A DNA stretch of 64,000 bases from positions 231,446,001 to 231,510,000 of the forward strand of contig OZ024743.1 in assembly GCA_964016885.1 (NCBI GenBank). Direction: 5' to 3'. Below the pieces are notes generated by a model. That model saw only the letters and a list, made by a program, of their open reading frames with translations, did not search any database and had not been told where the DNA came from. This document shows, piece after piece, positions 36,051 to 60,480 of this stretch (position 1 is its first letter; each line of letters starts with the position of its first letter). This stretch comes from Eledone cirrhosa. Its lineage: Eukaryota. A program made the translations under genes and the position numbers.

Positions 36051-36626
36051 ATTAGAATTGGTGCTCTGAAATACCTATATATATATGAATGTCTATATAC
36101 TGTATTTTGCAATACACTGTATGCTTAATTAAAACCATTTCGAAGACCTTATGCTATTGTTTTAGAGTAGTGACAGTCTCACTTACTTTAAATTTTCAGC
36201 AAACAGGGGGAGATAAAGCTGACAGAGCTATGTTTCGTACTGATTGGTACTTATCAAAGCCAAGTACCCCACCTGTTTGCTGAAAATAATGAATGTTTCA
36301 TTCTTATAGAATTTCTAGTAATAATCAGGAACTGATTATACAGAGCGGTTGCCGGTCAAGCAGAAATTGAAAATTAGAATTGGCGCTCTGAAATAAGAAA
36401 TTCTATAAGAATTAAACATTCAGGATTTTCAGCAAACAAGTGGGGTACTTGGCTTTGATAAGTACCAATCAGTACGAAACAAGGCTCTGTCAGCTTTATC
36501 TCCCCCTGTTTGCTGAAAATTTAAAGTAAGTGAGATTGTCACTACTCTAAAACAATAGCATAAGGTCTTCGAAATGGTTTTAATTAAGCATACAGTGTAT
36601 TGCAAAATACACTATATATACATTCA
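36051..36626. mobile_element. Non-coding inverted pair of family J units
   Basis: 36085-36315 inverted relative to 36396-36626; same family as 59636-60480. Confidence 0.8.
36451..36495 (+). ncRNA. Hammerhead ribozyme, U3-A8 core (family J; inverted copy 36217-36261)
   Basis: ggct TTGATAA gtac caatca gtac GAAA caaggctctg TC agct. Confidence 0.8.
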
Positions 36627-36652
36627 TATATATATATATATATATATATATG

Positions 36653-37250
36653 ATATATTTTCTTTAGGTTGTTTTGGAAGCCTCAACAATGCAGATGGGT
36701 AACTCTCCGGTTAACAAGATCCGGTGTTGGAGAGAGAGATGTACGTGAATGTAGATTGAGATGTATAGTGTGTAGAAGAACGTAGGAAAGAGCGTAAAAA
36801 ATTAAAATAACTCGATATAGAGTTACCTTGGGAGAGATTTAATTGTCCCTATATATTTCGGATTCACATCCATCAACTAGGGGTTTTTTTCTGGGGAGGG
36901 TGAACGTTGTCTGTCGGAAAGGTGCGAAACATCTCTTTCTCACCTTTCCGACAGACAACCTTACCCCCCCCCCCCCGGAACGCCGCTCCCCCAGTTGATG
37001 GATGTGAATCCGAAAGATATAGGGACAATTAAATCTCTCCCAAGGTAACTCTATCTCGTGTTATTATTTTTATTTTTTACGGTCTTTCCTACGTTCTTCT
37101 ACACACTATACATTCACTCACATCTCTCTCTCCACCACCGGATCTTGTTAACCGGAGAATTGCCCATCTGCATTGTTGAGGCTTCCAAAACGTCCTAAAG
37201 TAAATATATCTTATTATTCCACAATGCTTCAAGCAAACTTCAATACTCTC
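36653..37250 (+). mobile_element. Non-coding fold-back PLE-type insertion (family N) with an HHR-like motif and short tail
   Basis: 36653-36925 inverted relative to 36940-37210; tail 37211-37250; HHR-like 36987-37025. Confidence 0.7.
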
Positions 37251-38679
37251 TTATATATATATATATATATATATATATATATATATATATATATATTAGA
37301 AAGTGAGGTTTTCTTTGCAAAATGAAAAATAACCGAGGGGTCCTTCACGTGTGAAAGTATAAAGAAACAAAGATGAAATCGAAAATACAACTGGAGTTTT
37401 ATTTTAAAAAAAAATATAAATATTTATTTGGTTCCTTTACCGGTTTCGCAGTTCTTCTGCTTTTCAAAATAGATTGAGATGGAGGGACTGTGGTTTTTCT
37501 CACATCTGGTTGGTTTCTGAATGTTATTGTTTTATATGGAAAAATGTGGCTCGAAATGCCAGGTATTTAGAGAAGTAATTTGATTGGTTGATCAATAATT
37601 GTAATAAATTTCGCGCTAGTTCGCGTTACAAAGTTCTTCAAACAGGGGGGGGGGGGCACAGGTTGTTTTTTTAATATATGAGTGTTTGAATTTCTTTTTA
37701 CTTAAAAAAAAGGGGCTCATGAAGGCTTTTTTTAAATAAACGTAATTTGATTGGTTATAAAAGAAATTATGGCTGTCACGTGAACTAGTTTTCATAAAAT
37801 TTTCGCGCCCTTATTTGGAAATCTATTCTGTATTCTTTTTAGAGAATTTTATGACAATCAAAAGATAATGGTCAAGAGAAATGGGATGGGAGAATTGTTC
37901 TGGTTTAGGGAATATGGTTAGTTCGCTGGGGTGTCAGAATTCATATTTTCTATTGAAATAAAGTAAAGATATGTATGTTTATTGTGTGTGTGTGTGTGTG
38001 TGTGTGTGTGTGTGTGTGTGTGTGTGTGTGTGTGTGTGTGTGTGTGTGTGTGTTTGAATTTATTTTTACCTAAAAAAGAGGCTCACGAATGTTTTTTTTT
38101 AGTAAACGTAATTTGATTGGTTATAAATGAAATTATGGCTGTCACGTGAACAAGTTTTCATTAAATGTTTGCGCCATCATTTGGAAATCTATTCTGTAGC
38201 CTTTTTAGAGTATTTTATGACAAGCGAAAGATAATGGTCAAGAGAAATGGGATGGGAGAATTGTTCTGGTTCAGTGAATATGGTTAGTTCGCTGGGGTTT
38301 CAGAATTCAGATTTCTATTGAATTAAAGAAAGTAAAGATGTGTATGTTTATGTGTGTGCTTGTGTGTGTGTATGTGTGTGTGTGTTTATTGGAAGATGAT
38401 TCTATTAGTAGAAATGGGGGAGGGAGTTGTGTGTGTGTGTATGGGTGTTATGTGTGTGTGAGAGTATGTTAAGATGGAGAGAATATATATATTGTGTGTG
38501 TGTGTATATATGTGTGTACGAAAGTGATTCTATTAGTAGAAATGGGGGAGGGAGTTCTGTGTGTGTGGGGTGGGGTTGTTATGTGTGTGTATGGGTGTTA
38601 TGTGTGTGGGAGTATGGATAGCATGTTAAGATGAAGAGAATATATATATAGTGTGTGTGTGTGTAGGAAAATGATTCCT

Positions 38680-58141: not shown

Positions 58142-58829
58142 GACCCGAGGTAAATGTAGAAATCTAGATTTTTAATGTCTATATTTGCAGTTAAATATCG
58201 AAGCTTTGCAAAAAAGTAATTACTAATGTTTTCCACATCAGCGTGAAGTAACAAGTGAAAACTTGATATAACACTAACACAAATGTCGGTAAATTTATAG
58301 AGCCTTGCTTTTGGTGAGAAAACATTATTTTCCTCGTGTGTTTTTTGGGGTTTTTTTTCGTGTGCTATCATCCAATCTGACATTCAAGATTCTCCTAATT
58401 GACATTTTACCAGGAAAACAGGAGTCGGGTGGGTGAGCCACTCATCGCCCCGACCTCCTCACAGTTTTCTGTATGTTTGTTCTTTTGTTTTCGTGTGTTA
58501 TCAAAGAATATGACCACCAAACTAGTTAGAAACGACTACCTTTATAGAAAAGGGAGGTGAGGAAACGGGCAGAAAGACCATCGAAGTTTCGCAGATCTAT
58601 ACATCCATCCTTGCATTTAGTGGGAAATAATTATTTTTCTTCGGCGATGTCGTGTTGTCAACAAATCTGACCTCCAAGATTCTCAGAATCGATGTTTCTC
58701 CTGGATTAGGGTATATATCAACGTACATTTGTTTATATTTACGAAGGCCTAAACATATAATTCAGGTAGGTCTTTTATGTTCTAATTTCCTGAAACAAAG
58801 TGTTATATTATAGAGAATACCACAGAGGA

Positions 58830-59400
58830 ATCTGCTCTGATTAACATCCTCATGTCCATTGAATTCCTCACTAAACCTTATTTTGTTGTCCGCCACTATT
58901 TGCATGGCTTCAACTGCTCTCACAATCCAGCCACCGATCTATACCTAGATTCCTTATGGGTCACCAGATACCAAATCGGGATAACCTGAAGAAGGCTTTC
59001 TCTAGATGAAAGAACACATAGCAACCTACACTTAGCGAGAAACTTTTCTTGTAAATGTCTCACTAAGAAGAGGGAATGTGTGATGCTCTTTAATGACATA
59101 AAATCAAATTGCATCTCATCGCATTTGAAACTTCACGCACAAATTACGCTGAAACTATTTGTGTCAATTTCATAAATTGGTCCATAGGTTTTATGCCTCT
59201 GTAGACGAGGCTTTCTAGAGCAGCACATTTACCATCATAACAAATAAGACATTGCATATGGTACGATCATGTATAATGTAATTTACAATGCGGGTGACTA
59301 TATGAATTTGAACTTCACATGATGACTACAAGATCCCAGCATCTGACAGTCCAACTGCTTTTCAATTTTTCTATTTCTTGATAGATTCTAAAATATTATG
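58830..59400 (-). pseudogene. Old RTE-like RT fragment
   Basis: MQFDFM..SITHSLFLVRHLQEK resembles QFGFM..ST.DAIF..RQLQEK. Confidence 0.55.
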
Positions 59401-59635
59401 ACTGTCAACGTCCATTTAAGGTCCGTCGAATCGTTGTACACGTTATCAACTTTTCGAAATAGTGTTTCCAAGTGTCTTTCTTCTGCGCATCATTGAGTGT
59501 AAGTACGCAGGTGCCATCCTGCACACACGTTTACCTAACCAAAGCCTGTTTCATATTTATGAATATATATATATATATATATATATATATATATATATAT
59601 ATATATATATATATATATATATATATATATATATA

Positions 59636-60480
59636 TATGGATGTATATATAGTGTATTTTGCAATACACTGTATGCTTAATTAAAAGCATTTCGAAGACC
59701 TTACGCTATTGTTTTAGAGTAGTGACAGTCTCACTTACTTTAATTTTCAGAAAACAGGGGAGATAAAGCTGACAGAGCTCTGTTTCGCACTTGTTGGTGC
59801 TTATCAAAGCTAACTACTCCTCCTGTTTGCTGAAAATCATGAGTGTTTGAATATTATAGAATTCTAGTAATAATCAGGAACTGATTATACAGAGCGGTTG
59901 CCGGTCAAGCAGAAATTGAACATTAGAATTGGTGCTCTGAAATAGCGATATATATATATATGAATGTATATATAGTGCTCTGTCAGCTTTATCTCCCCTG
60001 TTTGCTGAAAATTAAAGTAAGTGAGACTGTCACTACTCTAAAACAATAGCGTAAGGTCTTCGAAATGCTTTTAATTAAGCATACAGTGTATTGCAAAATA
60101 CACTATAAATACATTCATATATATATATCGCTATTTCAGAGCACCAATTCTAATTATCAATTTCTGCTTGACCGGCAATCGCTCTGTATTATCAGTTCCT
60201 TATTATTACTAGAATTCTACAAGAATCAAACACTCATGATTTTCCGCAAACAGGAGGAGTAGTTAGCCTTGATAAGCACCAAAAGGTGCGACACAGAGCT
60301 ATGTCAGCTTTATCTCCCCTGTTTGCTGAAGATTAAAGTGAGACTGTCACTATTCTAAAACAATAGCGTAAGGTCTTCGAAATGCTTTTAATTACGCATA
60401 CAGTGTATTGCAAAATACACTATATATACATTCATATATATATCACTATTTCAGAGCACCAATTCTAATTTTCAATTTCT
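59636..60480. mobile_element. Family J: one minus unit followed by tandem plus units of ~320 bp
   Basis: gct.tgtcagctttatctcccctg at ~59978 and ~60298; HHRs at 59767-59811(-) and 60265-60309(+, GACA). Confidence 0.82.
59767..59811 (-). ncRNA. Hammerhead ribozyme, U3-A8 core, fully palindromic stem III
   Basis: agct TTGATAA gcac caacaa gtgc GAAA cagagctctg TC agct. Confidence 0.87.

Follow-up and report, generated by a model that had tools for sequence, protein, structure and literature searches.

Does the recurrence of hammerhead ribozyme cores in which the pair C3-G8 is replaced by U3-A8 reflect repeated selection for catalysis in independent repeat families, or a few events that were inherited by many copies? 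The question is raised by a stretch of Eledone cirrhosa DNA (contig OZ024743.1, positions 231,446,001 to 231,510,000), which was analysed at its full length of 64,000 nucleotides and is called the window in the following. We hold with good confidence that two unrelated retroelement lineages of the window carry type I hammerheads with a U-A pair at positions 3 and 8, and that this pair was fixed once in the master element of each lineage and then copied passively. The first lineage comprises the Penelope-like elements F and O and the copies at 18099 and 18795; the second is a short repeat, family J. Judged from its repeat and retroelement content, the window is animal-like DNA: it is AT-rich (22-42% GC per 4 kb) and crowded with broken retroelements and with runs of (TA)n and (CA)n.

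Ten copies with a U3-A8 core were found at five insertions, mostly as two arms or two repeats of a single event. All four cores of family J read TTGATAA, with U3 at 36257(-), 36455(+), 59807(-) and 60269(+). The cores of the other lineage read TTGAAAA, with U3 at 41733(-), 37467(-), 53834(+), 51414(-) and 18795(+), except for TTGAGAA at 18099(-), where position 7 deviates and positions 3 and 8 are unchanged. An earlier note on this DNA had listed cores in which C3>U is combined with G8>A; these exist, the coordinates 41701 and 37435 being the low ends of minus-strand motifs that start at 41733 and 37467, and the copies at 36257(-), 51414(-) and 18099(-) are additions to its list. U3 and A8 occur together in 10 out of 10 core-keeping copies of families J, F, O and 18795/18099, and single mutants in none. 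The core boxes (positions 3-9, GAAA, UH) lie between three helices, of which helix I is open, and this corresponds to the type I topology. Intact type I hammerheads are the four copies at 36257, 36455, 59807 and 41733; those at 60269, 53834, 51414, 18795, 37467 and 18099 carry other damage, which is specified in Table 1 together with the coordinates of all features.

A strict type I descriptor, which was drawn up after the motifs had been seen, matched the window five times (four U3-A8 cores and one C3-G8 core). The control of 60 shuffled windows gave a mean of 0.18 matches (0.02 for U3-A8) and a maximum of 1. Folding z-scores were -4.6 to -6.5 for all four J copies, -2.9 and -2.3 for the F copies, and -0.6 for O. 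Families with ordinary C3-G8 cores (33431; 8504, 30524, 30947 and 48102) coexist in the window with the U3-A8 families.

Positions 3 and 8 pair with each other in the active hammerhead fold (PMC3884650; PMC3088659). The Watson-Crick tertiary contact that the earlier note had cited as established is thus documented, and in the present copies it would follow from the published structure. Natural C3-G8 → U3-A8 covariants occur in several hammerheads (Perreault et al. 2011, PMC3088659), and ribozymes with U3-A8 or otherwise exchanged pairs are active in vitro, according to PMC3088659 citing Przybilski and Hammann 2007. U3-A8 would accordingly represent a tolerated swap which keeps the tertiary pair, with one fixation in the master element of each lineage.

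The number of lineages was deduced from sequence comparison. The pseudo-LTRs (LTR, long terminal repeat) of F, O and 18099/18795 match each other with nhmmer E-values of 1e-33 to 1e-2, the identity around the motif is 58-91%, and the alignment of F with O scores 64, whereas none of 200 shuffles exceeded 32. A hairpin region upstream of the motif and a CCGG insert are common to F, O and 18099/18795. For J versus F the score was 28, which was equalled by 6 of 200 shuffles, and for J versus O it was 19; the 14-nt match outside the ribozyme that gave rise to the value of 28 was not accepted as homology. On these alignments there are two lineages, not three or four, and at most two origins of U3-A8: F, O and 18795 are homologous and therefore not independent U3-A8 families, contrary to what had been claimed, and only J is unrelated to them. 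Because transposon copies inherit the core of their master element, the presence of U3-A8 in all ten copies stands for two events, not ten, and the double change in most copies, offered in the earlier note as a sign of selection on catalysis, is not independent evidence of it. A stronger version of that argument, which posits separate origins of U3-A8 in three or four families and takes the copy counts to mirror repeated selection, would draw on the missing single mutants and on the lack of detectable homology between J and the F lineage beyond the motif, which makes two origins likely. Given the homology of F, O and 18795, the 51% identity of the F and O endonucleases, and ten copies that go back to five insertions, several of them being two arms of one event, we consider this version highly improbable.

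More informative with respect to selection are the sequencing reads of family J, which were collected with the reference 59670-59940 at 80% likeness from four of ten listed runs (X1, X5, X7, X8). Matches were found in 2534 contigs of X1, 5725 reads of restriction-site-associated DNA of X8, 38 contigs of X5, which stems from another organism, and 4 of X7; J is a high-copy family. In X8, the two positions of the helix II pair 10.2-11.2 are changed in 806/1193 and 796/1196 reads, and those of the pair 10.4-11.4 in 213/1194 and 218/1182 reads. The corresponding numbers for the contigs of X1 are 75 and 73 for the first pair, and 30 and 35 for the second; all four changes are also seen in X5, and among the four window copies the change of the first pair is in phase (two C-G, two U-A). 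Loop II varies freely in X8, where 59793 differs in 818/1189 and 59792 in 228/1188 reads; position 2.4 alternates between Watson-Crick and wobble pairing (365/941), and the internal-loop base 59814 is split (474/937). No change of the core occurs among the 40 listed of 224 differences in X8, where the coverage is about 1,200-fold. We read these data as U3-A8 being the majority state of J, with a fold that was under constraint while the J subfamilies diverged. The matched frequencies of the helix II changes are better evidence of constraint than the copy counts of doubles. In the other lineage, F and O share 11 of 12 core positions versus 197 of 391 positions in the flanks (P 0.003); of the 36 positions of the complete motif, 30 are identical. 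Taken together, the helix II reads and the F-O conservation make selection on the fold likely; it would have acted on transposing masters, the inserted copies being left to decay. As a separate observation, the 43-nt segment 59875-59917 of J is common to another abundant repeat, with about six fixed differences; that repeat accounts for 1519 X8 reads with one common loose end and is seen in X5 and X7 too.

A number of results weigh against our interpretation. With respect to the reads, the table of J is unphased, reads are not copies, and with 40 of 224 differences listed, rare single mutants or C3-G8 copies are uncountable; X7 does not cover the J core. The commonest classes of difference in X8 are C>T and G>A (33 and 42 places), which are the types of both core changes. 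The covariation among the window copies of J (n=4) is no better than in shuffles, 146 of 500 of which reached its score, and the F-O alignment was anchored on the motif, which favours motif conservation. A C3-G8 ancestor was found for neither lineage, the direction of change being assumed from the consensus. Nearest-neighbour folding, in which tertiary contacts are outside the model, prefers a competing hairpin to the hammerhead fold of J by 2.3-5.1 kcal/mol in all three copies considered. The Rfam scores of J, 21.4 and 16.8 bits, are far below the gathering score of 52, F has no Rfam hammerhead match, and the analysis found no coding partner for J. Scanning the whole window with Rfam gave no match at the gathering threshold and, by E-value, no hammerhead among the 150 listed of 338 matches, which are microsatellite-driven microRNA and similar hits. 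The C3-G8 control hammerhead at 33431 is likewise without an Rfam match. A likeness of F to MALAT1 (RF01871; 41699-41780(-), 15.8 bits, E 6.4) was dismissed as chance.

Some of these points would be expected if the U3-A8 ribozymes were dead or nearly so, that is, if masters which had lost activity spread nevertheless and all copies inherited AT-ward transitions that arose in an AT-rich genome. The predominance of C>T and G>A, the damage in 6 of 10 window copies and the more stable competing fold of J in silico agree with this explanation, as does the report that Naiad elements spread without canonical hammerheads (PMC8557442). It leaves the matched-pair changes in helix II of J unexplained, as well as an F-O motif that is kept while the flanks drop to about 50% identity, and it conflicts with the reported in vitro activity of U3-A8 ribozymes; we thus regard it as improbable. 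A control with phage contigs, for which one fixed helix II of a different hammerhead class was used, showed no enrichment of doubles, which would suit dead ribozymes and tells against our interpretation: C3-G8 was found in 130 of the 131 matches listed (at least 129 loci), and U3-A8, U3-G8 and C3-A8 at 2 loci each, one each having both helix I and helix III. With so few loci and a different class, this control neither supports nor refutes the claim for the present genome. Helices I-III are present in the phage-contig hammerheads L132, L134 and L136, whose cores are U3-A8, U3-G8 and C3-A8, respectively. A reverse transcriptase (RT) query in viral contigs gave one weak 23-residue match, which was not used.

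What kind of element is J? The copy at 36455 aligns without gaps to Rfam HH9 (RF02275) over the core, helix II, the 6-nt loop II and the internal loop of helix I, with the same spacing. As regards a putative contact between loop I and loop II, the loop letters and their spacing align to HH9, but the proximal helix I contains two U-U oppositions. In the copy at 59767..59811(-), the 12 nt of helix III form a perfect palindrome, with -20.1 kcal/mol for the self-duplex, and cleavage is predicted after C17 at 59771. The circular monomer folds at a z-score of -4.5, to which the long helix I contributes a good part. The tandem contains two predicted cleavage sites in only about 1.5 units, the first unit having only the 3' part of the motif. 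These features fit a non-LTR retrozyme: J would be a non-autonomous repeat with a unit of 321 nt, whose hammerhead is of the canonical type I and which a Penelope-like RT and endonuclease probably copied. Transcripts through tandem copies would be cleaved after position 17, and the resulting unit-length RNA may circularise and serve as a template for reverse transcription by a Penelope-like enzyme; the palindromic helix III would allow two copies to pair as a dimer.

Alternatively, J could be a pseudo-LTR that became separated from an autonomous Penelope-like element, the open reading frame (ORF) of which lies outside the window, and no retrozyme with an RNA circle of its own. The tandem, the inverted arm, the tail and the (TA)n target of J match the pattern of Penelope-like insertions (PMC8557442), most of which are 5'-truncated, and this origin is a serious, if less probable, possibility. 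It does not account for the junction at 59974-60481, where the end of one J unit is followed by a short TA linker and the start of the next unit with no coding remnant, nor for the combination of a 321-nt unit and a canonical hammerhead, which fits animal retrozymes (PMC7229834). In addition, the loose ends of the J reads have no common upstream continuation tied to an ORF among the 22 of 294 rows listed.

A more far-reaching proposal takes J to be an active high-copy animal retrozyme, in which U3-A8 would have been fixed in a tertiary-stabilised hammerhead since U3 weakens an inactive hairpin in which the palindromic helix III can pair with helix I and the first bases of the core. When C3 was introduced in silico, the active fold lay 6.2 instead of 3.5 kcal/mol above the hairpin in the read-majority copy and 4.3 instead of 2.3 kcal/mol in another one; in a third copy the difference fell from 5.1 to 4.0 kcal/mol. 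The misfolding idea thus holds in two of three copies, and we put the proposal as a whole forward as a speculation that is rather unlikely to be correct.

In the Penelope-like lineage, the assignment rests on domains and on the linker between them. Each pseudo-LTR contains a hammerhead; the inverted repeats of O are 94% and the direct repeats of F 92% identical. The hammerhead at 41701..41736(-), whose helix II has 4 bp, precedes the first ATG of F by about 140 nt. PF01541 (GIY-YIG) scored above cut-off in both F and O, and PF00078 (RT) weakly on one F piece (21 bits, below cut-off). The endonuclease part of F has nine longer homologues with up to 69% identity, and the full-length homologues, which are 41-69% identical, carry the RT. 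A CX4CX2C linker is present in four of five aligned homologues (intact homologues: P0001, P0003, P0004, P0007); more generally, a Cys-rich CX2-5CxxC linker precedes the endonuclease in O and the homologues, one Cys being changed in F. Such a linker is a mark of Neptune/Nematis-type Penelope-like elements (PMC8557442). By these sequence criteria F and O are Penelope-like elements with an endonuclease (EN+) and pseudo-LTR hammerheads, O being a 5'-truncated sister element of F with an inverted arm; the F lineage is classified as Neptune-type by its linker and domains. Immediately upstream of the hammerheads of F and O a hairpin (41747-41776(-), 37481-37508(-), 53791-53820(+)) is kept in both families with differing paired letters, and is possibly a conserved RNA element of the pseudo-LTR.

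Table 1. Hammerhead motifs, elements and control motifs of the window (J, F and O denote repeat families; U3, position of the core uridine; pLTR, pseudo-LTR).
Feature	Positions	Strand	Remarks
J type I hammerhead	59767..59811	-	intact; U3 59807, A8 59802; 4-bp helix II, 6-nt loop
Distal helix I enclosing the J hammerhead	59742..59835	-	about 20 bp beyond internal loop
J hammerhead	36451..36495	+	intact core; U3 36455; cleavage predicted after 36491; Rfam HH9 positions 1-77
J hammerhead	36217..36261	-	intact core; U3 36257
J hammerhead	60265..60309	+	damaged; U3 60269; GAAA box altered at A14, mismatch at 2.1
J monomer, cleavage site to cleavage site	59985..60305	+	321 nt, 35% GC, no long ORF
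J insertion 1	36040..36636	.	full unit with ~30-nt tail (minus) and inverted 5'-truncated unit (plus), in (TA)n
J insertion 2	59620..60481	.	inverted unit, partial tandem of ~1.5 units, ~30-nt tail, in (TA)n
F upstream pLTR	41563..42101	-	92% identical to 37295-37832
F downstream pLTR	37295..37832	-	direct repeat of 41563-42101
F Penelope-like ORF	38680..41560	-	in several pieces; RT, Cys-rich linker, C-terminal GIY-YIG endonuclease
F minimal hammerhead, upstream pLTR	41701..41736	-	U3 41733; 3-bp helix I, palindromic CCGG in helix III
F minimal hammerhead, downstream pLTR	37435..37470	-	U3 37467; helix I reduced to 2 bp
O ORF, 5'-truncated	52016..52876	+	linker and GIY-YIG; 51% identical to F endonuclease part
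O minimal hammerhead	53831..53867	+	U3 53834; A13 altered; within pLTR 53231-53995
O hammerhead, inverted arm	51381..51417	-	U3 51414; identical to 53834 copy, including A13; arm 51253-52041 of same insertion
F-lineage hammerhead remnant	18792..18827	+	U3 18795; helix I lost
F-lineage hammerhead	18067..18102	-	U3 18099; G at position 7, G-U wobble 10.1-11.1 at base of helix II
Control: C3-G8 type I hammerhead of unrelated repeat	33426..33467	+	core 33431; descriptor match
Control: C3-G8 minimal hammerhead	8496..8566	+	core 8504; long helix II; relatives 30524, 30947, 48102 (all plus)

The closest published counterparts are the Cercyon Penelope-like elements, for which about 1,300 U3-A8 matches were reported in Schistosoma mansoni (Cervera and De la Pena 2014, PMC4209133). 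As had been foreseen for the present cores, a strict CUGANGA search misses them, and the authors of that work state the same of their own first descriptor. Among the 56 representatives in their Fig. S3 we counted 53 C3-G8, 2 U3-A8 and 1 U3-G8; the rows S. mansoni (3) and (4) show UUGAUAA and UUGAAAA, as found here. Further similarities are the location in pseudo-LTRs, a short helix I, a palindromic helix III and a U-rich 5' flank. In contrast, host and element clade differ, the present elements have a Neptune-type linker, F lacks the extra base after A9, its helix II is 4 bp long and it carries a CCGG insert, and J is not minimal. Penelope hammerheads with a palindromic helix III probably cleave slowly, as dimers (PMC6765202; PMC4209133).

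J resembles animal non-LTR retrozymes (PMC7229834; bioRxiv 10.64898/2026.07.22.740005) in its ORF-less tandem unit of 321 nt (published: about 170-400), its type I hammerhead, a GC content under 45%, a self-paired monomer and its co-occurrence with Penelope-like elements. It differs from them in the U3-A8 core, which was not met in the accessible text of these two sources, and in window tandems of only 1.5 units. From Rfam HH9 (RF02275, clan CL00010) it is distinguished by U3-A8, the proximal U-U oppositions and a longer palindromic helix III. Compared with the covariants of Perreault et al. (PMC3088659), the compensatory pair is the same and is fixed here in high-copy retroelement families of one genome. 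The accessible portions of PMC7151607 and PMC6155905 contain nothing further on the 3-8 pair, and no description of U3-A8 in a canonical retrozyme-type hammerhead was found in a literature search that covered few subscription papers. When metagenomes were scanned for motifs like that of J, any letter being allowed at positions 3 and 8, 16 loci were obtained; none of them is similar to the window by blastn, and they were taken as chance or unrelated.

Several other elements of the window were noted. In a second copy of the 33431 family (32860-32960(-)), helix II and the GAAA box have been removed by an internal deletion, the flanks being intact. A four-copy repeat at 34128-36004 contains CTGATGA (CTGGTGA in one copy) with a GAAA box directly after it and a second GAAA 27 nt further on; its hammerhead topology is ambiguous. 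The open frame of 610 amino acids at 14364-16196(+) aligns with RT and GIY-YIG motifs of Penelope-like proteins (15% identity) and has no Pfam match. The repeats around it, 12891-13695 and 17339-17904, contain no convincing hammerhead, and a related fragment lies at 27745-28176. RT matches (Pfam RVT_1) were found at 45734-46267 within a broken retroelement (43814-47171(+)) and at 24274 in 24274-25131(+); the latter is presumably gypsy-like, and we take 60763-62344(+) to be among the non-LTR-like fragments. Large self-inverted repeats with arms of 81-94% identity are present at 36648-37214, 47271-47966, 57851-58141 and 53988-54200; the hammerhead scan found none in them.

The U3-A8 variant, its Penelope-like hosts and the blind spot of CUGANGA searches are already in print (PMC4209133, PMC3088659), and the window adds new examples. 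No current view is changed, because the pair, the tolerance of its exchange and its occurrence in Penelope-like elements have been published. If the cores are active, surveys keyed to CUGANGA would once more be seen to undercount animal hammerheads, and J would extend U3-A8 from minimal Penelope hammerheads to a canonical hammerhead of the retrozyme type; the cores would then be of use as an addition to search descriptors and as natural constructs for kinetics. Should, in addition, the misfolding interpretation of U3 be true, with a second lineage having fixed the same pair separately, this genome would offer a natural setting in which to test compensatory evolution in the active site of a ribozyme.

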